Below are positions 18,017-53,608 of a DNA stretch of 64,000 bases, piece by piece. How positions within the stretch are numbered: the stretch's first letter is position 1; every line of letters starts with the position of its first letter. The position numbers and the translations under genes were made by a program. Source of the stretch: an uncultured Eubacteriales bacterium (GTDB taxonomy: Bacteria > Bacillota > Clostridia > Oscillospirales > CAG-272); NCBI GenBank assembly GCA_934489945.1, contig CAKSSY010000002.1, forward strand, positions 14,002 to 78,001, written 5' to 3'. The notes under the pieces are model-generated. The model ran no database searches, was not told the origin of the DNA, and was given only the letters and a program-made list of their open reading frames with translations.

Positions 18017-20243
18017 CTTTCATATCGCCTCCCAAATGAAACCCCAGACCTGTATAACGCAAAGCATGACGATCATTCGACACCATAGTAGCAATCACAT
18101 CGGTCTTGCCAACCAGAATCACCATTTTTTGTGCCCGCGTCACCGCCGTGTACAACAAATTCCGTGTCAGAAGCATCGGTGCCGCAGAGTACATCGGAAT
18201 AATCACGACAGGATACTCACTACCCTGACTTTTGTGAACCGTAATCGCGTATGCGTGTTCCAGTTCTTCCAACATCGAAAACTCGTACTGCACCAAGCGA
18301 TCGTCGAAAAAAATGTCCATGATCTTTTCCGACGGTCTTATGCTCCGTATTTCGCCGATATCGCCGTTAAAGATTCCCGTCCCCTTCCGGTTCCCGCGTT
18401 CCCATTCGATTTCATAGTTATTGCGGATTTGCATCACCTTGTCTCCGACACGAAAGAGACGGTCGCGAAACATATATTCCGTCTTGTCAGCCGCCTTCGG
18501 ATTGAGAACGCCCTGAAGAAGGCGATTGAGAGAATCGGTTCCACCCTCTCCGCGACGCGATGGAGTAATGACCTGGATCCGGTTCACAATGTCCGCACCA
18601 TATGCCTTGGGCAGGCGATTGCGGCACAAATCGGCGACTGTCGAAGCAATGGAGGCGTCTGTTTCGCGCGAAATAAAGAAAAAATCATTATCCCCCACAT
18701 TCAAAATCGGCATCTCCCCGACGTTAATCCGATGTGCGTTTGTGACAATCAGACTTTTCTGCGCCTGTCGAAACACCTCGGTCAACTCCACCGTAGAAAA
18801 CCTTCCCCCTGCGATCATGTCATGAAGAACATTTCCCGCACCGACCGAGGGCAACTGATCGGCATCTCCAATGAGAATCAGACGGGCACCCGGTTTGATC
18901 GCCCTCAAAAGCGCATACATCAGATAGGTGTCTGCCATGGAAAATTCGTCAACGATGATAACATTCTCGTCCAGAAAATTGTGTTCATTCCGTAAGAAAA
19001 CCGACTCATCGTTTTTCTCATGGCTGAATTCCAACAAACGATGAATGGTTTTCGCCTCACTGCAAGTCGATTCCGACAGTCGTTTTGCCGCACGTCCCGT
19101 AGGGGCAGCAAGCGCGATCTTCATATCCATGCTGAGGAAAATGCGAAGCAACGCTCTCACCACAGTGGTTTTTCCCGTTCCGGGCCCCCCCGTCAGGATC
19201 ATCACACCACTCGACATAGCATCCACAATCGCCTTTCTCTGCAATGCGGCATATGCCAGATGGCTGCTTTTTTCTTCACGTTCGATAAATCGCCCAATCT
19301 CCTGTATATCGGCACAGATACAGGTTTTGTCCAAAAGCATCAACTTGTCGGCAATAAATTTCTCACACTCGTATGTATGTGCGTCAAAAATGTATTTTTC
19401 CCCGTCAACTGTCATAGAAACAAACAACCCTGCACGAATCAATCCGGTAATCGTCTGTCGGATTTTTTCTCCGTCAACCCCCAGTACACGCGAAGAAGCC
19501 ATAATCAGCTTGTCCTCGGGCAAACAGGTATGACCGTTCTGCACCATGTTGTGTGTCAGAACATGACGCACTCCGCCCCTCAAACGCTCAGGCGAATCCG
19601 TATCAAATCCGAGACTGCCGGCAAAGCTGTCAACCTTTTCAAAGCCTATTCCCTCGATTTCGTCACAAAGAATATAGGGATTTTTCCCGGCAAGCTCCAC
19701 GGCATTGGCTCCCCACTTCTGATAGATTCTGACCGTTGCCGCCGCGCCGAAAGCATCACGGAAAAACAACATGGCAGAACGCATTCCCGCTTTGGCTTTG
19801 AAGTCCTCCGCAATTTCCAATGCTTTTTTTCGCGAAACGCCGTTGACCTGCGCCAACCATTCCGGGTGATTTTCCATAACCGAAAACGTATCGGGACCGA
19901 ATTCCTTTACAATTCTTGCCGCCAGTTTCGGACCGATTCCCTTGATTACGCCGGAAGCAAGATAGCGAAGCATCGCCGTCTCATCTGCAGGAAGAACAGA
20001 CTCGTACTCCGTCACCGAAAATTGCGTTCCGTACTTGGGATTATGTACCCACTTGCCGTAGACCGTCAGCGTATCGCCCTCCGTCACATAAGGCAAGGTT
20101 CCCACAATGGTAATAACATCTCCCGCGTCAAGAAGGAAATCAAGAATGGCATAGCCGTTTTCCTCGTTGGAATAAACCACGCCCTCCACACTGCCGGTCA
20201 GCATTTCCAACGACTTTCGATCCTCCGACAGATTTCCGTCCAT
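18003..20243 (-). CDS. recD2: SF1B ATP-dependent RecD2-type DNA helicase
   Basis: 746 aa with Walker A (LTGGPGTGKTT), the DEFSM motif (IIVDEFSMADT) and C-terminal helicase motifs (AITVHKSQGSEYPVVII). Confidence 0.9.
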   Translation of the reverse strand: MDGNLSEDRKSLEMLTGSVEGVVYSNEENGYAILDFLLDAGDVITIVGTLPYVTEGDTLTVYGKWVHNPKYGTQFSVTEYESVLPADETAMLRYLASGVIKGIGPKLAARIVKEFGPDTFSVMENHPEWLAQVNGVSRKKALEIAEDFKAKAGMRSAMLFFRDAFGAAATVRIYQKWGANAVELAGKNPYILCDEIEGIGFEKVDSFAGSLGFDTDSPERLRGGVRHVLTHNMVQNGHTCLPEDKLIMASSRVLGVDGEKIRQTITGLIRAGLFVSMTVDGEKYIFDAHTYECEKFIADKLMLLDKTCICADIQEIGRFIEREEKSSHLAYAALQRKAIVDAMSSGVMILTGGPGTGKTTVVRALLRIFLSMDMKIALAAPTGRAAKRLSESTCSEAKTIHRLLEFSHEKNDESVFLRNEHNFLDENVIIVDEFSMADTYLMYALLRAIKPGARLILIGDADQLPSVGAGNVLHDMIAGGRFSTVELTEVFRQAQKSLIVTNAHRINVGEMPILNVGDNDFFFISRETDASIASTVADLCRNRLPKAYGADIVNRIQVITPSRRGEGGTDSLNRLLQGVLNPKAADKTEYMFRDRLFRVGDKVMQIRNNYEIEWERGNRKGTGIFNGDIGEIRSIRPSEKIMDIFFDDRLVQYEFSMLEELEHAYAITVHKSQGSEYPVVIIPMYSAAPMLLTRNLLYTAVTRAQKMVILVGKTDVIATMVSNDRHALRYTGLGFHLGGDMKGVER

Positions 20244-36444: not shown

Positions 36445-37527
36445 TCAGCCTTGTATATAAGCCTCCCGCCCGCTTTCCGCCGAACGGTAGAAAGCCTCCA
36501 GAATGGCGGAGACCGCGATTGTCTCGGCAGGCTTTACAATCGGATTCTCACGACCCGTCAGCACTTCCCGCAGATTCCGCACAAGATGAATGTGACCCGG
36601 AAAATGACTGTCGGGATACGCCTCAGGAAGAGGAGGCAATTCGCAGTCAGTATTTACGCCGCTGTAGAGCCGGCAGGACGGCAAGGAAATGCCGATATGA
36701 CGGTTCACAAGGGTAATGTCCGATGCCTCCGGCAGATTCGTCGCCCACGCGACCTTGAAATTCATTATCGCCCCGTCCGAAAACCGAACGGTTCCGGCAC
36801 CGAAATCCTCCACATCCATTTCTTCGGGATGAAACTTGGCGATGCTGTCCACGTGACCGGTAAGCGCACCGCTCGCCACAAGGTCACCCAGTTCCCCCGG
36901 ATGATTCCGCTTTGTGCTTGCCAGAACCGAAACGGGATCGGTTCTGCCGGAAAGCCAGATGGCGGCATCCAGCATATGAACGCCGATGTCAAGAAAGGCA
37001 CCGCCTCCCGACACCGCTTTCTTGTGAAAAGAACCCCAAAACGGAATTCCGCGTCTGCGGATACGCGACAGTTCCATATAATAGAAATCGTTCTCTCCGT
37101 GTTCTTCGATGTATTTTTTTGCCGCCAGACGGTCGGGTGTAAAACGCATACTCTGACAAGCCATCAAAACTTTTCCCTGCCGCGCGGCAAAATCGAACAT
37201 TTCGCGTGCGTCCGCCACCGTCATGGCAAGCGGTTTTTCGCAAAGAACGTTTGCTCCGCTGGAAAGTGCCAACATGGTATATTCCTTGTGAAAGCGGTTA
37301 GGGACACAGACCGAAACCACATCGGGAGAAAGCTCGCGAAGCATCACACCGGCATCCGTGTACCAGTGCGGGATTCCGTTTTTTGCCGCCGTGCTTTCCG
37401 CCGCCGCGGCAGAAATATCCGAAACACCGACAATTTCAAAATCTCCGGGAAAAGTACGGTACGCCGGAATGTGCGCGGCATTGGCAATCATACCGCAGCT
37501 GATAATACAAACACGCAACATCCTCAC
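36445..37527 (-). CDS. Gfo/Idh/MocA family NAD(P)-dependent oxidoreductase (canonical)
   Basis: 360 aa with the Rossmann N-terminus RVCIISCGMIANAAH and the EKP motif VLCEKPLAMT. Its ATG overlaps the stop of the upstream TIM-barrel gene (ATGA). Confidence 0.85.
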   Translation of the reverse strand: MRMLRVCIISCGMIANAAHIPAYRTFPGDFEIVGVSDISAAAAESTAAKNGIPHWYTDAGVMLRELSPDVVSVCVPNRFHKEYTMLALSSGANVLCEKPLAMTVADAREMFDFAARQGKVLMACQSMRFTPDRLAAKKYIEEHGENDFYYMELSRIRRRGIPFWGSFHKKAVSGGGAFLDIGVHMLDAAIWLSGRTDPVSVLASTKRNHPGELGDLVASGALTGHVDSIAKFHPEEMDVEDFGAGTVRFSDGAIMNFKVAWATNLPEASDITLVNRHIGISLPSCRLYSGVNTDCELPPLPEAYPDSHFPGHIHLVRNLREVLTGRENPIVKPAETIAVSAILEAFYRSAESGREAYIQG

Positions 37528-38300
37528 ACCTCCCCAAGAAACCCGAAGGTTTCGGCATCCGGCACAGTGGCGCGGTATTCCAACCCGAAATAACCGTCAT
37601 AGCCGGTTTTCAGGATTTCACGCAAAATCGACGGATAATTGACGCATCCTGTTCCCGGCTCGTGTCTGCCCGGACAGTCTGCAATGTGAAAATGTCCGAT
37701 CCGTCCGATCTTCTCGCGGACAAGGGCAAGATCAAAGTCTCCCGTCATGTGTTGATGGTAAATATCATATAACATTTTTACGTTCGGACTGTTCACATCG
37801 TCAAGGATTCTGAAAAGGCGTGCCGCCTCCGGCATGAAATAATTCTTCCTGTCGGTAGCGTTGAGCGGTTCCACAATCAAAGTAATTCCTTCCGCCTCGG
37901 CATAGGGAGCGACAAAAGACAGGCAATCACGGACATTTTCCTCCTGCCTCTCCCTGTCCGGCTCCTCCAAGGTTTCTCCGATAAGAACAATCATCGCCGC
38001 AGCACCGAGTTTATGATAAACCGGCGCGCTCTCCTGCAAAGCGGTAAGCAAATCTTTCTTCCGCCCCGCGTTCAGAATCCCGCGTGAAAGATCATACGAC
38101 AGCGTTTCGTCCCGACTGTCGATATTGAATACCGACAGCTTCATTTCGTTTTCGTTCAGAAGTGTCGTCACACGGTCGATGTCTTTGTTCGTCCACTTCC
38201 AGAACTCCACGGCATCCATACCACAGGCATGCGCCGCGCCGATACGATCCTCAAATGCCATATCGGCGAACATCATGTCAATGCAAGTGCTGATTTTCAT
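37524..38300 (-). CDS. xylose-isomerase-like TIM-barrel protein (sugar phosphate isomerase/epimerase; hydroxypyruvate-isomerase-like)
   Basis: 258 aa with family-typical blocks: GMDAVEFW, ITLIVEPLN, HFHIADCPGRHEPGTG and YDGYFGLEY. 4-nt overlaps with both neighbouring genes. Confidence 0.8.
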   Translation of the reverse strand: MKISTCIDMMFADMAFEDRIGAAHACGMDAVEFWKWTNKDIDRVTTLLNENEMKLSVFNIDSRDETLSYDLSRGILNAGRKKDLLTALQESAPVYHKLGAAAMIVLIGETLEEPDRERQEENVRDCLSFVAPYAEAEGITLIVEPLNATDRKNYFMPEAARLFRILDDVNSPNVKMLYDIYHQHMTGDFDLALVREKIGRIGHFHIADCPGRHEPGTGCVNYPSILREILKTGYDGYFGLEYRATVPDAETFGFLGEV

Positions 38301-39571
38301 TGATCTTCCTCGTAATAATCTTTCTTTGTGATAACAAGACGCTCAAAACTGTCCGGTGCGTCGCCGAAATCCGGAACCTCAAGCGGTTCGCCGTCACGCA
38401 GTGCCGATTCGTGTGCCATAAGTCCCGGAATCATGTAACGTGCCGCATCCCATGCGTTGTTCGGAGGCAGTTTGTCTTCCACCACGGCACGGACAAAATC
38501 GTCTACCAAAAAAGGATGCGTAAACTGATGCCACGGTGCCTTTGTCTCGCGCAATTTTTTCGGAAGGCGCGAAAGATCCTGAATCGGCGAAGGACTGTTG
38601 ACATATTTCGGATTGATCGGATCGGTCGTGTTGTTCATGATGCCGGCGTGCTTGTCATGAACGTAACGGACGGAGTTTATCAATTCGTCAAGATACTCAA
38701 TGTACGGTGTCTCACCGGACGCCCTGCCGCGCTGATAGGTATGCTGAAGTGCACTGCACTCATAGGATCCCATGTCGCCGTAAAGGCAGGTAATATAAGA
38801 GGAAGGTTTGTTGATACCGACACGGCGGAATTCGTTGATACGCGCCACACCGCCGCCCGACATCCGGAAGATTGCCGTTTCATTGGAGAAAGGATTGTCC
38901 CAGAAATTTTTTCCTTCACCGTAAACACCGTCGTCGTGAAAATCACGCATCCCGAAGCAGGTGACTTTGGTTGCGTGTTCTCCGATGGCGGAAAACAGCA
39001 TGGAAACCGAATGTGTGGGATAGAACATCGGCGGAATTCCCGCGGCACGTTGCCAGTGTTCGCCACCGCTCCGCTTGAAATCCACAGACATTTCGTACAT
39101 ATCGTGATAATACTGCGACTCTCCGTATACAAACTTTCCGAAGCCGCCCTCCGCATATTTCTGACGACAGTAAATAGCACAAGGATAGTAATAACAGGTC
39201 TCGCCCATCATATAGACGCGCCCCGAACGCTTTACGGCATCAATAATTTCGCCGATCTCCTCCACGGTGCAGGCAATCGGCACCGCGCTGTAAACATTCT
39301 TTCCCGCTTCCAGTGCTTTCAGAACCATCGGACCGTGCAAATGGCGTTGTGTAAAAATCGCAATACAGTCAATGTCCTTACCGTTTTCGATTGCATCCTC
39401 GAAGGAGGTAAAATACCGCTTGATACCGTGTTTTTCACAGGCTTCCGTAATTCGTTCCGGAACAATGTCGGCAACCGAAACCTCTCCGACATCCGGATGA
39501 TCCCGGAACAGTTCGATAAAATCGTCGGAAAAGGCACCCAATCCGACCACACAGACCTTCAGTTTTTTCAT
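38297..39571 (-). CDS. long (~424 aa) Gfo/Idh/MocA-like oxidoreductase, tandem paralogue 2
   Basis: N-terminus KVCVVGLGAFSDDF. The family EKP motif is replaced by NVYSAVPIACT. More than 60% identical by eye to the gene at 39585-40868. I chose the start at 39571. Confidence 0.75.
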   Translation of the reverse strand: MKKLKVCVVGLGAFSDDFIELFRDHPDVGEVSVADIVPERITEACEKHGIKRYFTSFEDAIENGKDIDCIAIFTQRHLHGPMVLKALEAGKNVYSAVPIACTVEEIGEIIDAVKRSGRVYMMGETCYYYPCAIYCRQKYAEGGFGKFVYGESQYYHDMYEMSVDFKRSGGEHWQRAAGIPPMFYPTHSVSMLFSAIGEHATKVTCFGMRDFHDDGVYGEGKNFWDNPFSNETAIFRMSGGGVARINEFRRVGINKPSSYITCLYGDMGSYECSALQHTYQRGRASGETPYIEYLDELINSVRYVHDKHAGIMNNTTDPINPKYVNSPSPIQDLSRLPKKLRETKAPWHQFTHPFLVDDFVRAVVEDKLPPNNAWDAARYMIPGLMAHESALRDGEPLEVPDFGDAPDSFERLVITKKDYYEEDQ

Positions 39572-39584
39572 CGTATCATCTCCC

Positions 39585-40868
39585 TTATTCTTCGTAATAA
39601 TCTTTCTCGGTATAGGTAAGCCGTTCCCATGACGACGGCGCGTCTCCAAAATCCGGAATGTCCATAAGGATTCCGCCCCGAAGAGCCGATTCGTGCGCTA
39701 CAAGCCCCGGAATCATGTAACGTGCCGAATCCCATGCGTTGTTCGGAGGCAACTTTTCCTCCATGACCGCACGGATGAAATCGTCCACCAGAAAAGGATG
39801 GGAATTGAAATGCGAAAACGGCGCGATATCACGGAACCCCTTCGGCAGACGGCTCTTGTCCTGAACCGGAGAGAACCCTTTGATATACCGTATCGAAATA
39901 GGATCGCTGGACCAATCGATCTTTCCCGCCCTTTTGTCGGCAATGTAGTCGTCACAATTTACAAATTCGTCGAGATATTCGATGTGCGGTTTCTTGTCCT
40001 CACCCATCTTGACGGCGGAAACGCCGCGCTGAAAGGTGTGTTGCGTCACACTGCACTCATAGGCACCCTTGTCCCCGTAAAACGCCGTGATGTAAGAAGA
40101 CGGCTTGTTGATGCCGACCCGGCGGAATTCGTTGATCCGCACTACACCGCCACCCGACATCCGGAAGATTGCCGTCTCGTTGGAGAAGGGATTGTCCCAG
40201 TTGTTTTTGCCGACACCGAAAATGTCGTCGGTATGAAAATTGTCATCCAGTCCCATACAGGAAACCTTGGTAGCATACTCATCAATTGCCGAAAACACCA
40301 TGGAAATGGAGTGCGTGGGATAGAACATCGGCGGAATCCCCGCCACACGTTGCCAATGTTCACCACCGCTACGGCTGAACGAACTGTACATTTCGGAAAT
40401 GTCGTGATAATACTGCGCCTCGGCGTACACGAATTTTCCAAAACCGCCCTCCCGGTATTTTTCACGGCAATAGATGGCACAGGGATAATAATAACAGGTT
40501 TCGCCCATCATATAGACAAGTCCCGTTTTCTTTACCTTTTCAATAATCTCCCCGATTTCTTCAATCGTGCAGGCGATCGGCACGGCACTGTAGACATTCT
40601 TGCCCGCGTCAAGTGCCTGCAACACCATCGGTCCATGAAGATGACGCTGCGTAAAAATTCCGATGCAATTGAGGTCTTTTCCTTCTTTCAACATCTCGTC
40701 AAGCGAATGGTAAAGACGACTTACGCCGTGCTTTGCGCCGCTCTCGGTCAGTCTGCCATCATCCAGATCGGCAATTGCGAGTTCTTCCACATCTGGATGT
40801 TCGTGAAACAGCCGGATAAAATCATCCGAAAAGTTTCCCGCCCCCACAATTCCCATACGCGCTTTCAT
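39585..40868 (-). CDS. long (~427 aa) Gfo/Idh/MocA-like oxidoreductase, tandem paralogue 1
   Basis: N-terminus MGIVGAGNFSDDF and the same SAVPIACT variant. I chose the start at 40868 (AAGGAG Shine-Dalgarno sequence; promoter at 40894-40922); ATGs at 40895 and 40856 are also possible. Confidence 0.75.
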   Translation of the reverse strand: MKARMGIVGAGNFSDDFIRLFHEHPDVEELAIADLDDGRLTESGAKHGVSRLYHSLDEMLKEGKDLNCIGIFTQRHLHGPMVLQALDAGKNVYSAVPIACTIEEIGEIIEKVKKTGLVYMMGETCYYYPCAIYCREKYREGGFGKFVYAEAQYYHDISEMYSSFSRSGGEHWQRVAGIPPMFYPTHSISMVFSAIDEYATKVSCMGLDDNFHTDDIFGVGKNNWDNPFSNETAIFRMSGGGVVRINEFRRVGINKPSSYITAFYGDKGAYECSVTQHTFQRGVSAVKMGEDKKPHIEYLDEFVNCDDYIADKRAGKIDWSSDPISIRYIKGFSPVQDKSRLPKGFRDIAPFSHFNSHPFLVDDFIRAVMEEKLPPNNAWDSARYMIPGLVAHESALRGGILMDIPDFGDAPSSWERLTYTEKDYYEE

Positions 40869-41021: not shown

Positions 41022-41864
41022 ATGGAACTGCGGGACCTCAATCCCTGCCTGCGTTTCGTACAAAAACGCTCGGTCACGGTATCTTATAAAGAAAACGTAT
41101 ATGCCTATGACTTCCGTTTGTTTTATCTCCTTTCGGGGCGGCTTGATATCAAGGTGGAGGACAAAATGTATATGCTGTCGCCCGATCAGGTGCTTTTTAT
41201 TCCTCCTGCCATTCCGTATCGCGTCTACGCATCGGAGGAAAACGAATTCATCATTCTGAATTTCGATATGACCCAGAAATATGCTGCCACATCATCCATC
41301 ACCCCCGACTACGCAAAGTATTTTGATGCCCGACACGTCATCAATCCCGAAACCGTCTCCGAGCTTTCCGTCACAACCCTGTTTGAAACACCTGACAGTG
41401 CACGGGAAGAAATCAATGCCCTGCATAATTGTTGGCTCGAGGAAATCCTGTATTATAAGGAAGAAAGCGACACGCGGTTGAAGTTGCTTCTGTTGTCACT
41501 CCTTGCTGCCAAACAATCCTCCTCGCCCAGCCACCCTCACATCGTGAATCGAATCCTCCGGTATATCGGCGACCATTATCGGGAGCCGCTTACGGCGGAG
41601 AGACTCGCACGGGAATTTCTTTACCACCCCAATCACCTCGGACGCGTTTTCCGTGAAGCAACCGGTGTCAGTCTGCATCGGTATGTCATAGACTGCCGCT
41701 TGCGGGAAGCGAAGGAGCTGCTTTCGACCACCGATAAAAGTATCGAAACCATCGCGCAACAGACAGGCTTTGAATCTCCGTCCTATTTCTCCAAATATTT
41801 CCGCCAAAAAACCGGTGTCTCCCCGTTCGCCTACCGGGAGAGCCATAAAAAATGGTTGTTCTGA
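41022..41864 (+). CDS. AraC-family transcriptional regulator (cupin-type sensor + HTH)
   Basis: 280 aa with an N-terminal AraC-binding/cupin-like region and a C-terminal HTH (PNHLGRVFREATGVSLHRYV...SPSYFSKYFRQKTGVSPFAYR). Confidence 0.85.
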   Translation: MELRDLNPCLRFVQKRSVTVSYKENVYAYDFRLFYLLSGRLDIKVEDKMYMLSPDQVLFIPPAIPYRVYASEENEFIILNFDMTQKYAATSSITPDYAKYFDARHVINPETVSELSVTTLFETPDSAREEINALHNCWLEEILYYKEESDTRLKLLLLSLLAAKQSSSPSHPHIVNRILRYIGDHYREPLTAERLAREFLYHPNHLGRVFREATGVSLHRYVIDCRLREAKELLSTTDKSIETIAQQTGFESPSYFSKYFRQKTGVSPFAYRESHKKWLF

Positions 41865-43179: not shown

Positions 43180-44460
43180 ATGACCGAAATCAACCTTCCT
43201 TTCGGAAAAGAGACACTCCCCCTCCGTATCGCCGACAATCACCTTGCCGCCATTCTCACCTCGGATATTCATAACTACATTCCCGGAAAAAGCGGCGCGG
43301 AACTTGTCCGGGAGGCATTGGAGCATCCTGTCGGCACACCCCGACTTTGTGACATGGCAGAAGGAAAAAATAAGGTGGTCGTCATATCCTCCGATCACAC
43401 ACGACCCGTTCCCAGTCATATTATCATGCCCCTGTTGCTTGCAGAGATCCGCCGCGGAAATCCCGATGCCGACATTACCATCCTTGTCGCCACGGGACTG
43501 CACCGCTCCACGACACGAGACGAATTGCGGGATAAATACGGAGAAGAGATTTTCAACCGTGAAAAAATCGTGATCCATGATTGCGATGACGAAAAGAATC
43601 TCGTTCGTGTAGGCAAACTCCCCTCCGGCGGCGAACTGATTCTGAATCGCCTTGCCGTGGAAGCGGATCTTCTGGTAGCCGAGGGATTCATTGAACCGCA
43701 TTTCTTTGCCGGATTTTCAGGCGGCAGAAAGAGCGTCCTGCCCGGAATTGCAAGCCGTAAGACCGTGATTTATAACCACAATTCGACATTTATCGCGAAC
43801 GAAAACGCACGCACGGGAAAACTGGACGGCAACCCCATTCACACCGATATGCTGTATGCCGCAAGAGCCGCAAGACTTGACTTTATCGTCAATGTCGTCA
43901 TTGATGCCGCTCACGAACCCATTTATGCCGTGGCGGGCGATTGCGATCTTGCCCACCGAGTCGGGAGAGAGTTCCTTGCCTCCCATTGCCGGAAGAAAGC
44001 CGTTCCCGCCGACATCGCCATCTCCACCAACGGCGGCTATCCGCTCGACCAGAACCTCTATCAGGCAGTCAAGGGCATGACAGCGGCAGAAGCCACCGTT
44101 CGCGAAGGCGGTGTCATTGTTATGGTTGCCAAGGCGGTGGACGGTCACGGCGGGGAATCTTTTTATAAAACCTTCCGGGATGCCGCGGATCTGCCCGCAC
44201 TCATGCAGTCCTTCCTCGATCGCAAGCCCGAGGATACGATTGTGGACCAGTGGGAATCGCAGATTCTTGCGCGGATTCTCCTGAAATGCCGCGTAATTTT
44301 TGTCTCTTCCTGCCCGGATGAGCTCATCCGTGAGATGCACATGATCCCTGCCCATACCATGGACGAGGCAATGGAAAACGCCATACGCCTTGTGGGAAAA
44401 GAGGACTATCGGGTAACGATCATTCCCGATGGTGTCTCGGTGATTGTGGAGCCGGCATGA
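43180..44460 (+). CDS. larA: LarA-family (nickel-pincer-dependent lactate racemase-like, DUF2088) protein
   Basis: 426 aa with the motifs VVVISSDHTRPVP, ILVATGLHR, EPHFFAGFSGGRKS and a C-terminal Rossmann-like half. The substrate cannot be read from the sequence. Confidence 0.75.
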   Translation: MTEINLPFGKETLPLRIADNHLAAILTSDIHNYIPGKSGAELVREALEHPVGTPRLCDMAEGKNKVVVISSDHTRPVPSHIIMPLLLAEIRRGNPDADITILVATGLHRSTTRDELRDKYGEEIFNREKIVIHDCDDEKNLVRVGKLPSGGELILNRLAVEADLLVAEGFIEPHFFAGFSGGRKSVLPGIASRKTVIYNHNSTFIANENARTGKLDGNPIHTDMLYAARAARLDFIVNVVIDAAHEPIYAVAGDCDLAHRVGREFLASHCRKKAVPADIAISTNGGYPLDQNLYQAVKGMTAAEATVREGGVIVMVAKAVDGHGGESFYKTFRDAADLPALMQSFLDRKPEDTIVDQWESQILARILLKCRVIFVSSCPDELIREMHMIPAHTMDEAMENAIRLVGKEDYRVTIIPDGVSVIVEPA

Positions 44461-45875: not shown

Positions 45876-45917
45876 AAACATCCCCCCGATGCACACTCGT
45901 GAATCGGGGGGATTGCT

Positions 45918-48131
45918 TTACATACCTTCCAGGAATCTGTCCACCACAAGCTGGCGGAATTGCGGAGAAAGCGATGCAAAATACGCCGTAAAACCTGTCA
46001 CACGCACCACCAGATCGGGATAGGCTTCCGGATCCCGATTTGCCGCCATCAGTTTTTCTCCGTCGAGAATATTGATGTTGATCAGTGTTCCGCCACGCTT
46101 GAAATGCCCCTCAATAAAGGCAAGAATAATGTCCACACCGTGTTCGTCCGCGGCAACCTTCGGATCAAATTCAATCTGAAGCGGCGCGGTATTACCGTAA
46201 CCGCACTGCACATCGGCAATCCCGTTCGACTGTGCCGTAACCGCACCGTCCACACGGAAGTGGGGGTTCGGGTTCGCACCGTGCGAAATCGGCTCTCCGC
46301 GTCGACGACCGTTCGGCGTGGCACCGACCACACTTCCGTATTCAATCGTCCGCGCCCATGAGAACCACCCCGGCACCAATGTCCGACCGCCCGGCATCGG
46401 CTGTGCTTTGACAGCCTTCACCCATGTTTCGGTCAGCCGCTTGGCAAACTCGTCGGAAATTGTCCCGCCGTGACAGTATTTCGGTGACGTATTCATCATC
46501 AGCCGCAGACTTTCATCGGCAAAATTGTTGTCGAGTGCCTCGTAGAGTTCGTCCCACGTCAGTTTCTTTTCTCTCTCAATGCGTGTCACAACGGCACCGA
46601 AAGAATCGGCAACCACGGCAAGTCCCGCACCGTCCACACCGATCGTGAAAAGCCGTGCACACTCGGAGGCATCCAGCCCCTTCTCCAACGAACCGGCAAA
46701 CATCAGATTCATGATCAATTCGGGCGTCACATCGTGAATGTGATCCAGATGCAGGTTGACCCCCGCCGCCGTGACCTCAATGGCTTTTTTCAGATGTTTT
46801 TCAAAGAGCGAATACAGTTTCTCGCTTGAGCGTTCCGTCTCTGTTCGCATTTCTTCCAATGCCACTTCCAAAACTTTGGCAATGTTGATCTTTACCGTGT
46901 CGTTCATCGGAAACTCCAAACCGGGAACACACATCCAGTTGCAACCGACCGCAATACGGCGACGCGCAGTCTCTTTGTCCACACCGTTTCTCATGTAGCC
47001 TTCGCAGAGTGTCTTGTCGCCGCAGAAACGTGGCCATCCGTTTTTGTTTTTCAAAAGACAGGCGACGGCTTTCCGAAGGAAAACCCGATCGCAGTTTTCG
47101 TGAACCCGAACGGTTAAATTGCAGGAAATATTGATGGAATCGGCGGCATCAAGAATCAGATAAGAAAGATGATTGGTCAGATCTCGGTCTTTTTCGTCCA
47201 CACCCGAAATCTGATAATAGTGCGGATCAATGAGAAGCAGATTGGCAATCAGAAATTTCGCCGTTTCATCATCCAGAATTCCTGCCCTGATGTCGTTTTC
47301 ATAGTAAGGCAGAAGAAGTGTGTCCAACTGAAATCCGGCACCGTCGCGCGTATAAATACGCGCGGCGCAGTTGAAGAACGCCACCCATTGGCAAGCCTCG
47401 TGAAAGGTTTTCGGTGCATTCAGCCGCACAGCTTCACAAACGACAAGCATCTTTTCAAGCGATTCCCGAATCTCCGGACGTTCCTCCCCGGGAATCATCT
47501 CGCGGATCTTCTCAATATGCCGATCCACAAAGGCGATAATGGCACGGACACAACGCTCCTCAGCATCGTAAAAATCCTTTTTGTCGGGATGGAGCTTGCG
47601 GTACTTTTCGATCTTCTCCAAAAAACCGCCGAATCCGAGCGAAAGACCGATGGAATAATCGCAGGCAAAATGCGCGTCACCGTCGATACCGGTCTGAATA
47701 TTGTACTTTTTCTGAAGCGGTTTCAACTCATCATAGGGAAAATGCTTTTCGTCCCACCGCTTGCTCCATTGTGCGGTAGCACCGTTCAGAATGGCACAGA
47801 GCTTCTCGTTCTTTTTGATCCAATCCGGCATATAATGTACATCGCCGCGGTAGTTGACCAGCATATCGCGCCACCTGCCGCAAAGCATTTCCATCGGATC
47901 GACATAGGCAGGATGCGCCCCGATCACACGGCAGAAATTCTCTGCCATACCGTCAAGTCCGTAAAAACTGCCGTTTTCGCTGTTGTATGCCGGCTCCACA
48001 TAATACCCCTCCGGCAACGGAACGGTACCGAAATCATCAAGATCGGTATAGCCGTTCTGCCGCTTTTTGGCAAGTGTATGTTCAATTTTGGTTTTCCGCA
48101 TAGCACAAAGTCTGTCCCGATAACTCAACAT
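45918..48131 (-). CDS. glycyl radical enzyme (PFL-like fold) with an atypical active-site loop; substrate unknown
   Basis: 737 aa with GRE blocks TFHEACQW, NLTVRV, VGATPNGRRRGEPISHG and GGTLININILD, plus the C-terminal glycine loop VVRVTGFTAYF (Gly codon at 45993-45995). The Cys loop is VGCNWMCVPG (Cys codon at 46941-46943) rather than GCVE or CC. Confidence 0.8.
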   Translation of the reverse strand: MLSYRDRLCAMRKTKIEHTLAKKRQNGYTDLDDFGTVPLPEGYYVEPAYNSENGSFYGLDGMAENFCRVIGAHPAYVDPMEMLCGRWRDMLVNYRGDVHYMPDWIKKNEKLCAILNGATAQWSKRWDEKHFPYDELKPLQKKYNIQTGIDGDAHFACDYSIGLSLGFGGFLEKIEKYRKLHPDKKDFYDAEERCVRAIIAFVDRHIEKIREMIPGEERPEIRESLEKMLVVCEAVRLNAPKTFHEACQWVAFFNCAARIYTRDGAGFQLDTLLLPYYENDIRAGILDDETAKFLIANLLLIDPHYYQISGVDEKDRDLTNHLSYLILDAADSINISCNLTVRVHENCDRVFLRKAVACLLKNKNGWPRFCGDKTLCEGYMRNGVDKETARRRIAVGCNWMCVPGLEFPMNDTVKINIAKVLEVALEEMRTETERSSEKLYSLFEKHLKKAIEVTAAGVNLHLDHIHDVTPELIMNLMFAGSLEKGLDASECARLFTIGVDGAGLAVVADSFGAVVTRIEREKKLTWDELYEALDNNFADESLRLMMNTSPKYCHGGTISDEFAKRLTETWVKAVKAQPMPGGRTLVPGWFSWARTIEYGSVVGATPNGRRRGEPISHGANPNPHFRVDGAVTAQSNGIADVQCGYGNTAPLQIEFDPKVAADEHGVDIILAFIEGHFKRGGTLININILDGEKLMAANRDPEAYPDLVVRVTGFTAYFASLSPQFRQLVVDRFLEGM

Positions 48132-48141
48132 CTTTCATTCC

Positions 48142-49245
48142 TCAACTTTCCGCAACCGCTTCCGCTTTGCCGGTACGGTTCGATTTTTCCGCCGCCGCAA
48201 TCATGGCAATGACATCGGCATTGAATTCCGCTGTCAGCGTTTCGTGCATGGAAGTTCCGTGCAGAACGTGCGCGGCGTACTGCCACGGCATATTCCGAAA
48301 GGCGGGATCGTCGGGGATTTCCGCCACTTCCAGATCGTTTCCGTAAAGATCGGAGGCTACCGTAAAGGCTTCCCCGTCCGGCACGCCGTCACACCAGACA
48401 ACACCGTCCGAACAAATCGCTTCGGGTCCTGTCGGCATCCGACGGCGCGGCGTGGTCCATGTTCCCTCGGCAACCGCAAAGCCGTTCTTGTAACGCATCA
48501 GTGCGGCAATGTTGTCCTCCACGTTTCCATAGGGCGTTCCGAGATTTTCTCCCACCGACATCACACTCTCCGGCAGACCGCCGAACATCCATCTGGCAAA
48601 ATAACAGCCGTAGCACAAAATGTCGAGATAGGCACCACCACCGCACTCTTTCCGATACCACCATGTGCGACCGCGTTCCTCGTCGGTCATTTCCTCCGCC
48701 CGGTCGGAAACGCCGCGGTGCTTGGCACCCTTTCCCAAAGGACCCGTATGACCATTCAGATAACGAAGTTTTTGCAGTTTTCCGATTTTTCCGCTGTCCA
48801 ATTCTTCCTTCATCTGCCGCACATAACGACGCCACGTAACAGGCCAGTTGACAAACACTTCCACGCCGTATTTTTCTTTCAGCGCGACAATCCGCGCAGC
48901 ATCCTCCGGCGTTGCCGCCATCGGTTTCTCCAGAATGACATTCACACCGCGCCTGGCGACCTCCTCCGCGACCTCCGCTTTGCGGACGTTTTCGCAAAGA
49001 AGATACGCAACATCGGGTTTCACCTCGTCCAGCATAGTTCTGTAGTCGTCAAAGGGCTTCGCACCGCAGTTTTCGACAACATTTTTAAAATTCCATGCAC
49101 GGGTGTAGCGTTTTTCGGTGTTTTCCGGCAACGCCGCGGGAATGTCGGCAACACCGCACAATTCACTTTCGGGTTGTCCTTTGATATAAAGAGCCACCTC
49201 ATTGACGTGCATATGTGCACATCCGATAATAACCGAACGAATCAT
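48142..49245 (-). CDS. Gfo/Idh/MocA-like oxidoreductase with a degenerate dinucleotide-binding motif (paralogue D)
   Basis: 367 aa. The N-terminus is RSVIIGCAHMHVNE instead of GxGxxG/A. EKP is present (ILEKPMAAT). Shares WWYRKECGGGAYLD with paralogue B. Confidence 0.75.
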   Translation of the reverse strand: MIRSVIIGCAHMHVNEVALYIKGQPESELCGVADIPAALPENTEKRYTRAWNFKNVVENCGAKPFDDYRTMLDEVKPDVAYLLCENVRKAEVAEEVARRGVNVILEKPMAATPEDAARIVALKEKYGVEVFVNWPVTWRRYVRQMKEELDSGKIGKLQKLRYLNGHTGPLGKGAKHRGVSDRAEEMTDEERGRTWWYRKECGGGAYLDILCYGCYFARWMFGGLPESVMSVGENLGTPYGNVEDNIAALMRYKNGFAVAEGTWTTPRRRMPTGPEAICSDGVVWCDGVPDGEAFTVASDLYGNDLEVAEIPDDPAFRNMPWQYAAHVLHGTSMHETLTAEFNADVIAMIAAAEKSNRTGKAEAVAES

Positions 49246-49262: not shown

Positions 49263-50381
49263 TCAGACAATCTCATCGGCACGGACTTCTCTTCCCGTCT
49301 TTGCCGACCGATAGAAGCATTCGATGATCTTTGCGACCTCCAGATTCTGGTGTTCTTTGATGAGATATTCCGCATTGCCTGCCAACGTTTCGAGAATATT
49401 GTCATACATATACCGATGCTGTTCAAAAGGAACCCCTTTGTACTCGCCGTTGTCAAACCATTTCAGTTTTGTCTCTGCCTGGTATTTTCCCACATTCTTG
49501 TAGAGCGTTTCGTTGTTGACCGAAAGTCCCCCGCGGTCTCCGCAGATCACCATGTCGAGGTTCGTCGTCGGCAGGTTGATTGCCCATGAAAACTTGAAGT
49601 TCACCGACATTCCGTTGTCCAGACGCATAAAGCCGGTGGAAAATTCCTCCACATTGAACTCGTGATAATCGTAAGGACGAGGCGTAAAGGTTCCAGCATA
49701 CGCTCCGCTCTCGGCAATGCTGATCATCACATCATCACCACGGCAACCGATCTTATTGTACGCCGAACCGCTGACCGAAACCACCTTCGGGTCTCCACAA
49801 ATCCAAAGCAACGAGTCAATCAAATGAACGCCAAGATCGCAGAAAGGACCGCCGTAGTTGTGTTCCTTCATGTGGAACATACCCCATGTCGGAATTCCGT
49901 AGCGACGGATGAATGCGATGTCGGAGAAATACGGGACCCCCAATTCACCGCTGTCCACAAGAATCTTCGATTGTTGCATATAGTTGCGCCATCTCATACA
50001 TTGACAGGGAAACAGCATCCGTCCGCAACGCTTGGCGGTATCCCACATTTCCTTGGCATCGGCGTAGGTCACGGCAATCGGTTTTTCGCAAGCAACATGC
50101 GCGCCTGCCTCCAGCGCGGCGATCGTCCACTGCTTGTGATAAACATTCGGGGTACAGACCGACACAAAGTCCGGCTTCACCTCATCAAGCATCCGTGCGG
50201 GATCGGCATACCACTTCTCCACCCCGTGCCGCTTTGCCGTTTCCTCAGCAACCTCCGGGCGAATGTCGGCAACGGCGACCACGTCCACAATACCTTTGTT
50301 TCTCAAAATATTCAACGCCGGAAAATGTGCCTGATTGGCAATCATACCGGTTCCGATTATAGCGACTCTGATCTTGTTCAT
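49263..50381 (-). CDS. Gfo/Idh/MocA family oxidoreductase (canonical, paralogue C)
   Basis: 372 aa with RVAIIGTGMIANQAH and VACEKPIAVT. I chose the start at 50381 (AGGGAG Shine-Dalgarno sequence). Confidence 0.85.
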   Translation of the reverse strand: MNKIRVAIIGTGMIANQAHFPALNILRNKGIVDVVAVADIRPEVAEETAKRHGVEKWYADPARMLDEVKPDFVSVCTPNVYHKQWTIAALEAGAHVACEKPIAVTYADAKEMWDTAKRCGRMLFPCQCMRWRNYMQQSKILVDSGELGVPYFSDIAFIRRYGIPTWGMFHMKEHNYGGPFCDLGVHLIDSLLWICGDPKVVSVSGSAYNKIGCRGDDVMISIAESGAYAGTFTPRPYDYHEFNVEEFSTGFMRLDNGMSVNFKFSWAINLPTTNLDMVICGDRGGLSVNNETLYKNVGKYQAETKLKWFDNGEYKGVPFEQHRYMYDNILETLAGNAEYLIKEHQNLEVAKIIECFYRSAKTGREVRADEIV

Positions 50382-50394
50382 GTTCTTCTCCCTT

Positions 50395-51468
50395 TCAAAT
50401 CTCTGTTTGGACGAATCCACCCGATTTCACCGACTTTCTGCCGGCATCCAACGCGGCACAAACGTCAAGATTGATTCCGGGTGTCAGCATTTCGTTGATT
50501 GATTCCTTTCCCCGCAGGAAAGCGATCAGGTTGGCACCGAGAAGGTCAAGCTGTCGATCAGCCTCCGCGTCAATCACTTCGGACGGCTCAACGGGTCTGT
50601 GTTCCGCACCAACGTATACCTTCACGAGATTGCTGTAACGATCACAGACAATCGTCCCCTCGGTTCCGTAGATCACCGGTCCCGATGGCACCTGACCGCA
50701 GTTGAAGGTCAACCATGACCCTTCCAAAAGACCTACGCCATCTCCAAAATCCAGCATCATGGAGCTGTAATCCTCCGCATCCGAGAATCCGGCGGTAAAA
50801 TTCTTTGTCATAGCGCACACACGTTCGGCGCGTTTGCCGAAAATCCACGTAGCAAGCATCGTTCCGTAGCAGGCATAGTCCAAAAAAGCACCGCCGCCGC
50901 GGTCGTGCCGATACCACCAACTTGCCGCTTTTTCTTCGGTCGGCTTTGTCAGGTTGTAGGGTCCCCATGTCGCGGGACTGCGATACGTCACGCGCATCAC
51001 CTTCCCGATTCTGCCGCTGCCGGCAAGCTCTTTGGCAATCCGGAATGCCGGAACCCACGCAATCGGCCAGTTTGTAAGAAACGGCGTATCATTTTTTTGG
51101 GCACATTCGGCTATTTTCACGGCGTCGGCATAGTCCATTGCCATCGGTTTTTCATCGAGCGTCGGAATTTTTTGCGAAAGAAGTCCACAGCAAATGTCTC
51201 CGCGTGACCGATTGTCACTCATCACAACCGCAAGATCGGGCATTTTCGCCGCAAGTTCCCGCCAATCATCAAAAATCCGAAGATCGGCAATGTCAGTCGC
51301 ATTTCCGAGATTGCGAAGCCGCGCCGCGTAAGGTTGATCGTCGACCGGCGGAACATCGGCGGCACCAAGAAACTCCACCTCATCCGTATGCAGGGCAAGC
51401 GTCTTGCGAAGCATCCCCGCGTGCGGATGCGCCATGCCGAAAAAGGCAACTTTCAGTTTATTCATCAT
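50395..51468 (-). CDS. Gfo/Idh/MocA-like oxidoreductase with a degenerate dinucleotide-binding motif (paralogue B)
   Basis: 357 aa with KVAFFGMAHPHAGM, LDEKPMAMD and WWYRHDRGGGAFLD. I chose the start at 51468 (AAGGAG Shine-Dalgarno sequence). Confidence 0.75.
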   Translation of the reverse strand: MMNKLKVAFFGMAHPHAGMLRKTLALHTDEVEFLGAADVPPVDDQPYAARLRNLGNATDIADLRIFDDWRELAAKMPDLAVVMSDNRSRGDICCGLLSQKIPTLDEKPMAMDYADAVKIAECAQKNDTPFLTNWPIAWVPAFRIAKELAGSGRIGKVMRVTYRSPATWGPYNLTKPTEEKAASWWYRHDRGGGAFLDYACYGTMLATWIFGKRAERVCAMTKNFTAGFSDAEDYSSMMLDFGDGVGLLEGSWLTFNCGQVPSGPVIYGTEGTIVCDRYSNLVKVYVGAEHRPVEPSEVIDAEADRQLDLLGANLIAFLRGKESINEMLTPGINLDVCAALDAGRKSVKSGGFVQTEI

Positions 51469-51476
51469 CCGGCTCC

Positions 51477-52568
51477 TTAAAATGTAGTTTCCAGATTTAC
51501 AGTGCTTCCCGTGCGGGCGGCTTCGGGAATCTTGCACATAATTTCCAGAACATGACGCGCGTGTTCAGGACGAAGAACAGGTTCGGTTCCCTTCTCCGCC
51601 GCCCGAATCAGATCGGCAAGACAACAGCACTGACTCTTGAGCTTTGGCGGATTGGTCTCCCAACTTTGCGCCGTAATCCATCCGCGGACACCGATCGCCG
51701 GAGAATCGATATACAGATCGGGAATCGGGTTGGTCATATAGGGTTGCGTCACGGCAATCGTTCCCTGCGTACCGAAAATTTCAAGCTGTGGAGCCTTGGT
51801 TGCCCTCTGTGAAAAACCGGTATCAACAAAACCGATCTTTCCGTTGGCAAACGTCAGCGAGATCAAATATTCATCCGGAATCTTGTCGGATTTGATCTTC
51901 TTGCCGTTAAAAGCCCCCGAGCGCACTACGCGGGCAGGATTTGTGACAGCGGCAAGACAGGAGATTGACTTTGCGGGACCGAACATGGTCGTCACAATCT
52001 GTAAACCGTGAACTCCCATATCGACGAGTGCACCCGCTCCGTCCTCAAAAAACCATGTCGGATCGGCATTCCGGAACTGAAAATACTCCGGACCGCCGTG
52101 TGCCGAATTACACTTGATGTAAGTCGCTTCACCAATCGCACCGTCACGTATCATCTGCTTTGCCACGGCAAGATCGTAACGCATCGGATGAATGGGGGCG
52201 CAGACAAACTTCACCCCTTTTGCCCTCGCCAGTTCAATCTGTTCGGTCATAAGCGCAACGGCGGGGGCAGCGGGCTTCTGAGAAATCAGATGCTTCCCCG
52301 CATTCAGCACCGCCATGTTGATCTCGTGATGAGCCTGGATAGAAGCCGCATCTATGGCAATGTCAAAATCGCACTTTTTGATCATCTCATAAACATTCGG
52401 ATACCACGAGGGCACATCGAACCGGCGCGCAGCAGACTCGGCACGTTCGGGTACAATATCGCAAACCGCCACACACACGGCATTTGCTTCTTTGGCAATG
52501 TTGGGGAGGTATTGCGCGGTGGCAAACATTCCGCATCCGATCACGGCAACCTTCCATTTTTTCATCAT
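51477..52568 (-). CDS. Gfo/Idh/MocA family oxidoreductase (canonical Rossmann, QKP variant; paralogue A)
   Basis: 363 aa with KVAVIGCGMFATAQ and LISQKPAAP. I chose the start at 52568 (GGAGGG Shine-Dalgarno sequence). Confidence 0.85.
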   Translation of the reverse strand: MMKKWKVAVIGCGMFATAQYLPNIAKEANAVCVAVCDIVPERAESAARRFDVPSWYPNVYEMIKKCDFDIAIDAASIQAHHEINMAVLNAGKHLISQKPAAPAVALMTEQIELARAKGVKFVCAPIHPMRYDLAVAKQMIRDGAIGEATYIKCNSAHGGPEYFQFRNADPTWFFEDGAGALVDMGVHGLQIVTTMFGPAKSISCLAAVTNPARVVRSGAFNGKKIKSDKIPDEYLISLTFANGKIGFVDTGFSQRATKAPQLEIFGTQGTIAVTQPYMTNPIPDLYIDSPAIGVRGWITAQSWETNPPKLKSQCCCLADLIRAAEKGTEPVLRPEHARHVLEIMCKIPEAARTGSTVNLETTF

Positions 52569-52603
52569 GAATCCCTCCGTTCGGAATTTTGTTCGGTCGC
52601 CCT

Positions 52604-52661
52604 TTACAAGAAAAGGCTTTTCTGATATAATCATTATAAAACAAAAACCAAAACCGAGCAA
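52604..52661. promoter_or_regulatory. divergent promoter region between the Gfo/GRE operon and its AraC gene
   Basis: Plus strand: TTACAA (52604-52609), 16 nt, TATAAT (52626-52631). Minus strand: TTGCTC (52661-52656), 17 nt, TATAAT (52638-52633). The two -10 boxes are separated by 1 nt (TATAATcATTATA). The palindrome AGAAAAGgCTTTTCT lies at 52609-52623. Confidence 0.45.
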
Positions 52662-52681: not shown

Positions 52682-53608
52682 ATGCACAAAATGAACATTC
52701 GGGAGGAAATTATGCTTTACCGGATTTCCCTGTCCGCCCTGCCGGAGCTTTGCGAAATCTATGAAATCGAGCGAAAAACCGTGTGGCGTTGCGCCGATCG
52801 GCGCAATATCCTCGTTCATATCACCGACGGCAGTTGTCTCTTTGAGATTGACGGCGACGAACTGCTCCTGACGCGTGGCGAAACGCTCTTAATCCCCGCA
52901 GGACAGGAATATACCCGTCGCCCGGCAAACGATGCGCTCTGTCGCTTCGTCTACCTCCACTTCCGCACCGACACGCCAATCTGCGCTGTCACCGAAGAAG
53001 AAGCAACAAACGAACGCCGCACCGAGGATGAGAATGCGGAACCCGGTGTTCCCGTCACACGGCGCGTGCTGTTTTTCCCGCAGGTCAGCCCTGTCGGTCA
53101 GACCGCTGAACAACGGAATGCCCTTCTGCACAAAATCATCACCGAACGCTACGCCCATATGGGACTTTCGCGTACCTTTTCGGCAATCTACCTGTGCGAA
53201 TTTCTTGCATTCCTCGCCTCGGAGTCGGATATCAACGGCAGTGCCAAAACCGGAATCGGACAACACCTCCCACGTCCGTTGCGGGAAGCATTGCTCTATA
53301 TCCGGCAAAATTACGACCGTAAAATCACGACTGAAGACCTCTGTCGGCATTGCGGACTCTCCCCTCAGCATTTGATTCGACTGTTCCGCAAACACCTCGG
53401 AACGACACCGATTCAGTATATCAACCGCAACAAAATCATGCACGCAATCGAAATGCTCCGTACATCCGAACTGACAGTCAAGGAGATTGCTTACTCGCTC
53501 GGCTATGACAATCCCAATTATTTCAGCCGTCTTTTTACGAAACTGGAAAACACCTCCCCCCGTGCCTGTCGCGAAAGAATACGAAGCTATTCAGATACAC
53601 TTGAATAA
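52682..53608 (+). CDS. AraC-family transcriptional regulator (cupin-type sensor + HTH)
   Basis: 308 aa with a cupin-like N-terminal region (LLLTRGETLLIPAGQEY) and a C-terminal HTH (SPQHLIRLFRKHLGTTPIQYI...NPNYFSRLFTKLENTSPRACR). Confidence 0.85.
   Translation: MHKMNIREEIMLYRISLSALPELCEIYEIERKTVWRCADRRNILVHITDGSCLFEIDGDELLLTRGETLLIPAGQEYTRRPANDALCRFVYLHFRTDTPICAVTEEEATNERRTEDENAEPGVPVTRRVLFFPQVSPVGQTAEQRNALLHKIITERYAHMGLSRTFSAIYLCEFLAFLASESDINGSAKTGIGQHLPRPLREALLYIRQNYDRKITTEDLCRHCGLSPQHLIRLFRKHLGTTPIQYINRNKIMHAIEMLRTSELTVKEIAYSLGYDNPNYFSRLFTKLENTSPRACRERIRSYSDTLE

Follow-up and report, generated by a model that had tools for sequence, protein, structure and literature searches.

The window considered here is a 64-kb stretch (64,000 nucleotides) of contig CAKSSY010000002.1, from an uncultured Eubacteriales bacterium. 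On its minus strand lies a gene for a 737-residue glycyl radical enzyme (GRE), the last gene of a five-gene operon in which it follows four genes for GFO/IDH/MocA-family oxidoreductases (GFO). The enzyme carries Trp in the column of the catalytic Glu of the CXE motif and belongs to a large clade, here called the C-x-W clade, for which radical cleavage of a carbohydrate-derived substrate is proposed below. The gene and its two catalytic loops are as follows.

45918-48131, minus strand: GRE of 737 amino acids, member of the C-x-W clade (open reading frame, Pfam, AlphaFold2 model and clade membership)
46920-46949, minus strand: Cys loop, residues V395-G404 (VGCNWMCVPG), with Cys397 as the thiyl site (gap-free HMMER alignment to glycerol dehydratase, GD, and to PflD)
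45990-46004, minus strand: Gly loop, residues R710-F714 (RVTGF), with Gly713 as the radical site (aligns to RVAGY of GD, Gly763)

Catalytic loops, fold and clade

Pfam assigns residues 148-599 to the PFL-like domain (PF02901, E=4e-92) and residues 617-718 to the Gly_radical domain (PF01228, E=7e-13). The codons of the key residues are read directly in the sequence: TGC for Cys397 (46941-46943), TGG for Trp399 (46935-46937) and GGT for Gly713 (45993-45995). In phmmer comparison with PDB sequences, VGCNWMCVPG aligns with 0 gaps onto IGCVEPQKPG of C. butyricum GD, and likewise without gaps onto VGCVELSIPG of E. coli PflD; in the GD alignment the equivalent residues (window enzyme = GD) are C397=C433, W399=E435, D411=D447, H154=H164 and G713=G763. 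Because these alignments are gap-free, Cys397 is taken as the canonical thiyl Cys, and Trp399 falls in the column of the CXE Glu. A preliminary description of the window had singled out this loop, its Cys codon and the lack of an acidic residue at +2, and on all three it was right. Its reading also held where it was most exposed: the alignment rules out a catalytic Cys at another site or within a GCVE motif, GCNW occurs in no characterised subfamily, and the Gly is present in all orthologues.

Three of the features that mark the GRE superfamily are found together in the window protein, namely the barrel, the C-terminal glycyl radical domain with an RVxG[FYW] Gly, and a Cys at the tip of the Cys loop. 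The gene encodes an intact GRE, with the fold and both catalytic loops complete. An aminoacyl radical enzyme, with a radical site other than Gly, is ruled out by Gly713, which is present and invariant in the clade. No public name was found for this exact protein.

An AlphaFold2 model computed with a 24-sequence alignment of the clade shows the full GRE barrel (predicted local distance difference test score 90.9; predicted template modelling score 0.91), with low confidence confined to residues 98-122. Foldseek comparison of the model with the PDB retrieves every eliminase and isomerase GRE at template modelling (TM) scores of 0.76-0.84 and identities of 18-23%, the best matches being GD, PflD, PD and HplG (TM 0.81-0.83). 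No solved structure from the C-x-W clade was found in this comparison, in which identity reached 23% at most. Where solved eliminases have their pocket-lining residues, the clade exchanges the Glu for Trp and the equivalent of GD S282 for Gly or Ala, and the pocket gains the aromatic residues Y/F305, Y407 and W592.

Most of the traits that the preliminary description had pointed out are not peculiar to this gene but are the signatures of a large monophyletic clade. The closest set comprises 120 protein clusters (77-100% identity, 727-740 amino acids) from Clostridia and Oscillospiraceae metagenome-assembled genomes and from Qingrenia yutianensis; GCNW is present in 119/120 and RVTGF in 119/120. 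At greater distance, an exhaustive search of 1.84 billion representatives returned 4444 GRE matches, and the 98 full-length top matches were aligned together with the query. Within this set, 26 sequences have Trp at +2 and 73 do not, 55 of the latter being CXE sequences. The 26 read G-C-[NHFQ]-W in the Cys loop and nearly all read RVTG[FY] in the Gly loop, and in a neighbour-joining tree they form a single clade with 0 non-W intruders.

Trp399 is present in 26/26 clade members, as against Glu in 55/55 representatives of the CXE group. Glu471 is likewise found in 26/26, the five commonest residues at that position in the other sampled GREs being T, D, S, L and Y, and Asp411 in 26/26 against 21/73 of the others. 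Glu406 and His154 each occur in 23/26 members, and His154, D280, D487 and R609 are common to the clade and the wider superfamily. Cys397, Trp399 and Gly713 are invariant in 24 clade members spanning 25-83% identity. The window protein has every trait of the clade (G-C-x-W, RVTG[FY], E406, D411, E471, a length within ~700-760 amino acids, and its placement in the tree). Together, C-x-W, RVTG[FY] and a length of ~730 amino acids define a deep monophyletic GRE clade, whose members go down to ~27% identity. At least 587 species-representative genomes carry it, mainly those of gut or rumen Clostridia, and gut metagenomes of humans, ruminants and poultry contain it in abundance.

Several earlier remarks on the sequence are to be read against this background. 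The Gly loop RVTGF and its Gly codon had been located correctly, but Thr712 before the Gly, called unusual, is the rule within the clade (23/26) and infrequent among the other sampled GREs (7/73). The protein is indeed short at 737 amino acids, a length typical of its clade, where the median is 732 amino acids compared with 788 for the 55 CXE sequences; the gap to described enzymes had been overstated, PFL having 759 residues (~3% more) and PflD, PFL2 and GD 776-787 (~5-6%). The second Cys, at +4, is present in the window protein but dispensable across the clade: Cys401 occurs in 7/26 representatives, others having Ala (6), Ser (4) or Val (4) there, and it is Ala in 4/120 of the closest clusters.

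Comparison with curated models (NCBIfam, release of June 2026) gives TIGR01774 (PFL2-3) as the best match, and its 258 bits fall far short of the cutoff, 678. The equivalog models HpfG, PflD-like, HypD, HpsG, CutC, IAD, HPAD and PFL stay at 68-217 bits, their cutoffs being ~1000 or more; for PFL itself (TIGR01255) the score is 68 against 994. Judged by these scores and by its motifs, the window enzyme lies outside every CHARACTERISED subfamily. Its C-N-W loop departs from the CXE shared by the GRE 1,2-eliminases and isomerases (GD, PD, HypD, CutC, IslA, HpsG, HplG, PflD, YbiW), although the His164 and Asp447 equivalents typical of GD and PD are present as H154 and D411. Neither the adjacent Cys pair nor the TIGR01255-level match of a formate lyase is seen. 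The decarboxylase models are far from reached (NF033715, 103 against 1150 bits; NF033718, 112 against 1100), and the X-succinate synthases BSS and MasD are weaker PDB matches; no conserved family of small accessory-subunit reading frames emerged from neighbourhood clustering of 80 loci. On these sequence grounds the enzyme belongs neither to the GRE decarboxylases (HPAD, IAD) nor to the X-succinate synthases. No member of the clade has been characterised: it is absent from the NCBIfam equivalogs, from solved structures above 23% identity and from a June 2026 review of GREs, which lists no C-x-W class (PMC13450708).

The best-matching characterised enzymes are two C-O 1,2-eliminases, the B12-independent GD (C. 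butyricum, PDB 1R8W/1R9D) and 1,2-propanediol dehydratase (PD; R. inulinivorans, 5I2G), with E=3e-52 and TM scores of 0.81-0.82. They share with the window enzyme the 10-stranded barrel, a Cys loop of equal length (G-C-x-x-x-x-x-P-G), the Gly loop and the equivalents of H154 and D411, and the activase of the window enzyme's orthologues is, like theirs, of the PflA type. They differ from it in having the CXE Glu in place of the invariant Trp, Ser282 in place of Gly or Ala, and ~50 more residues, at an identity of only 20-22%; the clade adds the pocket aromatics named above and the clade-specific E406 and E471. The genomic partners differ as well, being GFO/IDH/MocA dehydrogenases here and aldehyde-processing enzymes or microcompartment proteins for GD and PD.

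Among characterised GREs, only PflD and YbiW (PDB 8ID0, 8YJO, 8ID7; E=4e-51, TM ~0.81) act on sugars, opening the rings of 1,5-anhydromannitol-6-P and 1,5-anhydroglucitol-6-P. The likeness is one of carbohydrate context, which for the window enzyme is probable from its neighbours. PflD and YbiW keep the CXE motif, its Glu hydrogen-bonded to the C2-OH, whereas the window protein lacks that Glu and is 20-22% identical to them; their substrates are phosphorylated and derived from the phosphotransferase system (PTS), with aldolases downstream in the pathway, whereas the clade's neighbourhood has no conserved kinase, PTS or aldolase. PFL2 of Archaeoglobus fulgidus (PDB 2F3O; E=5e-50), a solved GRE of debated function (PMC13450708), differs in its GCVE loop, is archaeal and stands outside the C-x-W clade.

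Genomic partners and the activase

The operon, its surroundings and a companion operon consist of the following features.

45882-45911, minus strand: GC-rich hairpin of 9 bp, CCCCCCGAT...ATCGGGGGG, 6 nt past the GRE stop codon (sequence reading)
48142-49245, minus strand: GFO/IDH/MocA oxidoreductase of the 'GFO3' type, 10 nt 5' of the GRE gene (Pfam; 51.5% to Qingrenia GFO3)
49263-50381, minus strand: GFO/IDH/MocA oxidoreductase, second from the GRE gene (Pfam, gene call)
50395-51465, minus strand: GFO/IDH/MocA oxidoreductase, third from the GRE gene (Pfam, gene call)
51477-52634, minus strand: GFO/IDH/MocA oxidoreductase, first gene of the operon (Pfam, gene call)
52682-53608, plus strand: AraC-family regulator, divergent from the operon of four GFO genes and the GRE gene (Pfam HTH_AraC, HTH_18, AraC_binding)
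36445-40868, minus strand: companion operon of a long GFO, a second long GFO, a Hyi/OtnI-like TIM-barrel isomerase and a GFO (tblastn, Pfam)
41022-41864, plus strand: AraC-family regulator, divergent from the companion operon (Pfam)

The hairpin is a likely operon terminator; its T tract is weak, and a consensus scan made no call there. At the other end, the AraC gene is kept 5' of the operon in many loci. The 79% orthologue in Qingrenia yutianensis has the order AraC | GFO (433 amino acids)-TIM barrel-GFO-GFO-activase (255 amino acids)-GRE in a single operon, with the stop codon of the activase gene overlapping the start of the GRE gene. Genes of the companion operon are 59-65% identical (tblastn) to Qingrenia GFO1, TIM and GFO2 at the front of that operon; because of this orthology, the pathway is split in the window into two regulons ~5 kb apart.

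In orthologous loci, the gene for the activase sits between the GFO3-type gene and the GRE gene. A search of GTDB species representatives matched at least 587 loci or genomes, from which 80 loci (L numbers below) were fetched, and in 72/75 species with sufficient upstream sequence the activase gene lies immediately 5' of the GRE gene. Two orthologous activases score 273 and 260 bits with TIGR02494, a curated model of GRE activases whose cutoff is 174. One clade protein, P0127 (1052 amino acids), consists of an N-terminal radical S-adenosylmethionine (SAM) activase and a C-x-W GRE, and represents either a fusion or a read-through of overlapping genes. Because of the adjacent activases, their pass of TIGR02494 and the apparently fused member, the C-x-W family is considered radical-dependent, with a dedicated activase. 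The clade activases are short, for example L001:9250-10017 (Qingrenia) and L088:7229-8026, with 255-265 residues compared with ~300 for eliminase activases; since CxxCxxCxxxC occurs just once as an auxiliary motif beyond the CX3CX2C site, they may bind one auxiliary cluster and not two.

The window has no such gene. As reported in the preliminary description, its 64 kb contain no radical-SAM gene, a result now supported by motif scan and by tblastn: CxxxCxxC occurs only in three spurious frames of 83-109 amino acids, and tblastn with two orthologous activases found nothing in the window or in ~19 kb of extra flank (~9 left, ~10 right). No degraded activase pseudogene was detected in the window at E<=10, the sole match being a 30-residue ferredoxin motif in an unrelated Fe-S protein. 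A possible hidden GRE-activase pair at 18003-20243 and 17240-18016 proved to encode a RecD2-type helicase and a ComF-like phosphoribosyltransferase. At the junction itself, the TGA of the GFO3 orthologue is followed by 10 nt containing a Shine-Dalgarno-like GAGG and then by the ATG of the GRE gene, with no scar. The same GFO-GRE junction is present in three independent assemblies, which rules out an assembly artefact.

The sister locus L087 (85% identity) also has a GFO gene directly followed by the GRE gene, and the relative L088 (83%) has AraC|GFO x4, then a 265-residue activase, then the GRE. L038, L057 and L070 come from unrelated species that lack an adjacent activase; because the nearest relatives of each have one, three further independent losses are indicated. 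The missing activase is a recent lineage-specific deletion shared with the 85% sister and recurrent elsewhere, and not a trait of this type of GRE. In L038, ~2.3 kb without GFO, activase or GRE homology (L038:6584-8904) break the GFO array just 5' of the GFO3-GRE pair, and may be an insertion connected with a rearrangement.

We infer from the sequence comparisons that the window GRE would be activated in trans, by an activase encoded elsewhere in the genome. Loci L062 (7184-12214), L064 (7044-12214) and L066 (89-4333) each have a single activase flanked by two GREs of different clades, with an RVGGFSARF paralogue upstream and the RVTGF C-x-W enzyme downstream, an arrangement which suggests that one activase can naturally serve two GREs in this group.

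Unbiased clustering of neighbours in the 80 loci defines a core of the GRE, the activase (64 loci), GFO proteins (57 loci, ~2.5 per locus) and AraC; the TIM barrel and the long GFO occur together in 15/80. A tally of the loci puts GFO genes in 59/80. Occasional neighbours are PF12831 flavin adenine dinucleotide (FAD) oxidoreductases, CUT2-type sugar ABC transporters, SGNH esterases and glycosidase-like proteins, and the neighbourhood of the deep clade member P0152 was uninformative. The GFO paralogues are only remotely like 1,5-anhydrofructose reductase, GFOR, IolG, levoglucosan dehydrogenase and DgpA; the one at 49263-50381 has weak similarity, far under cutoffs, to IolG and levoglucosan dehydrogenase. 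The TIM-barrel isomerase scores 166 bits with the hydroxypyruvate isomerase model TIGR03234, whose cutoff is 353. An attempt to name the substrate from the partner enzymes failed, since none of the GFO paralogues, nor the TIM barrel, comes near an equivalog cutoff.

In cultured Anaerocolumna xylanovorans DSM 12503 (L080:1940-13838), a 54% orthologue and its activase lie in a carbohydrate locus with two DUF1861 proteins, ABC sugar permeases, a solute-binding protein, a PF12831 FAD oxidoreductase and an SGNH esterase, and with no GFO genes. A PF12831 FAD-dependent oxidoreductase also adjoins the GRE in L088 (10235-11515) and in at least nine other loci (for example L023:5569-6735), and may be an alternative or extra redox partner.

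Candidate reaction and alternatives

The reading favoured here, with a probability of roughly 0.55, is that the window gene encodes a functional GRE of the uncharacterised C-x-W clade, activated in trans and catalysing C-O cleavage of a neutral carbohydrate-derived substrate. The two suggestions of the preliminary description, a different active-site chemistry and a trans-encoded activase, remain the leading ones. An activase encoded elsewhere in the genome would install the radical on Gly713, from which it would pass to Cys397; the resulting thiyl radical would abstract hydrogen from the substrate. Such a relay from Gly to Cys is established GRE chemistry. The substrate would be neutral and non-phosphorylated, and the genomic context points to a keto-sugar, an anhydro-sugar or a cyclitol, which the GFO/IDH/MocA dehydrogenases of the same transcript and the companion operon's Hyi-like isomerase would probably form or use up. 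It may stack against W399 in a pocket that Y305/Y306, F407 and W592 line together with that Trp. The most likely reaction would be a C-O cleavage, either dehydration or ring opening, this being the least certain step. Its acid could be the retained His154, and the part of the CXE Glu as base could be taken by a clade-specific carboxylate at another position (E406, D411 or E471). Redox steps before and after the radical step would fall to the GFO enzymes, which would reduce or oxidise the product.

Several observations weigh against this proposal. No activase was found in ~82 kb of the 94.6-kb parent contig, and cross-activation among GREs is uncommon and depends on the Gly loop (PMC13450708). 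The clustering of 80 loci brought out no conserved transporter, kinase or aldolase with the operon, and the GFO paralogues match characterised enzymes at E values of only ~1e-9 to 1e-25, far under all equivalog cutoffs. That W399 points inward, and where E406 and E471 lie, is predicted from homology, and an aromatic-rich pocket would also suit a hydrophobic or aromatic substrate. The substitution rates between the window gene and L087 (non-synonymous, dN=0.109; synonymous, dS=2.9; dN/dS=0.037) include a saturated dS, so the ratio is approximate.

The lack of an activase in ~82 kb, together with the usual specificity of activases for the Gly loop of their partner (PMC13450708), would also suit an orphaned relic that can no longer be activated and has lost its function or is turning into a pseudogene. 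This is unlikely: the reading frame is intact, the five activase-less GREs retain 22/22 of the invariant or near-invariant residues checked, and the activase-less sister L087 has diverged by 15% at a dN/dS of ~0.04 after a single inferred loss. Because the invariant residues are kept and the ratio is this low, strong purifying selection has continued after the activase was lost. The GRE gene remains tightly coupled to the upstream GFO gene through the Shine-Dalgarno-like sequence, and the independent losses in L038, L057 and L070 were not followed by decay of the GRE. More improbable still is a radical-independent role (structural, regulatory or non-radical catalytic) in which the Gly and Cys loops would be inherited leftovers. 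The lack of a local activase and the fact that clade members are known from their sequences alone would allow it, but Gly713, Cys397 and the RVTG motif are invariant down to 25% identity, and a dedicated activase adjoins the GRE in 96% of species and is apparently fused to it in one member, conservation that would be unexpected without a radical function.

As to the chemistry, the enzyme may be a 1,2-eliminase of the ordinary kind, dehydrating a new polyol much as the diol or polyol dehydratases GD and PD do, with its base moved and with no new reaction type; this minority reading is plausible and overlaps with the favoured one. GD, PD, PflD and HplG are the best matches in sequence and fold, His154 and Asp411 align with His164 and Asp447 of GD, and the carboxylates E406 and E471 could stand in for the CXE Glu. 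All characterised eliminases and isomerases have that Glu bonded to the substrate, however (all six C-O eliminases, CutC, the C-S lyases and three isomerases keep CXE, the Glu hydrogen-bonding the substrate; PMC13450708), where the clade has an invariant Trp. The Gly or Ala at the GD S282 position, the aromatic residues at several pocket positions, the 258 bits against 678 with TIGR01774 and the 18-23% identity to any solved eliminase also speak against an ordinary member. A two-Cys mechanism like that of PFL, in which a radical relay between Cys397 and Cys401 would cleave a C-C bond of an alpha-keto or dicarbonyl compound, is highly doubtful. The window enzyme resembles PFL and TdcE in length (737 and 759 amino acids), in having no Glu at +2 and in its second Cys four residues on from the first, and GFO and TIM enzymes could produce dicarbonyl sugars; the PFL pair, by contrast, is adjacent (C418-C419) and essential, and only PFL and TdcE have two catalytic Cys (PMC13450708), whereas Cys401 varies within the clade, even among the closest orthologues. 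The PFL match is limited to the C-terminal third (E=5e-18), and the TIGR01255 score is low.

A wider claim, tentative and at somewhat less than even odds, is that the C-x-W clade would constitute a new functional class of GRE, with an undescribed radical transformation of a neutral keto-sugar, anhydro-sugar or cyclitol and an activase that is not co-encoded in several lineages, that of the window among them. Such a class would be distinct from CXE eliminases and isomerases, PFL-type lyases, decarboxylases and X-succinate synthases, and would possibly be distinguished by a Trp-lined pocket and a relocated acid/base. If true, it would mean a carbohydrate catabolism in gut and rumen Clostridia that oxidises its substrate with GFO/IDH/MocA dehydrogenases and then cleaves it by a radical. 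The eliminase and isomerase GREs known by mid-2026 are all CXE enzymes; in the C-x-W clade an invariant Trp replaces the catalytic Glu. Sugar or cyclitol dehydrogenases have never before been linked to a GRE, and the genomic partnership is new: full-text search of the literature found no GRE tied to Gfo/Idh/MocA, inositol dehydrogenase, inosose, levoglucosan or sugar-phosphate isomerase.

GREs account for a large share of the difficult anaerobic chemistry of gut metabolism: they convert choline to trimethylamine, act on hydroxyproline, lead from isethionate to H2S and form skatole and p-cresol, and each newly assigned GRE clade has opened a pathway. The C-x-W clade offers testable targets in the cultured carriers Qingrenia yutianensis and Anaerocolumna xylanovorans, whose compact operons include the matching activases. 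That the adjacent activase was lost repeatedly while the GRE did not decay provides a natural experiment on activase-GRE specificity, which is poorly understood in the field.

Other genes on the contig

Between the two GFO operons, at 43180-44460 on the plus strand, lies a LarA-like gene (Lar_N and LarA_C domains, of the nickel-pincer racemase/epimerase family), which adjoins two SAM-methyltransferase-like genes. Positions 5597-8371 of the window encode a FAD_oxidored/Thi4-like protein of 519-528 amino acids, a small 2x[4Fe-4S] ferredoxin and a PocR-AraC regulator; this ferredoxin is the only, and spurious, tblastn match to the auxiliary-cluster motif of the activases. On the parent contig, ~20-24 kb past the right end of the window (L090:1-3217), genes for an AraC regulator, a type I 3-dehydroquinase, a Zn-dependent alcohol dehydrogenase and an SDR protein form a cluster that looks like one for quinate/shikimate-type or cyclitol catabolism.

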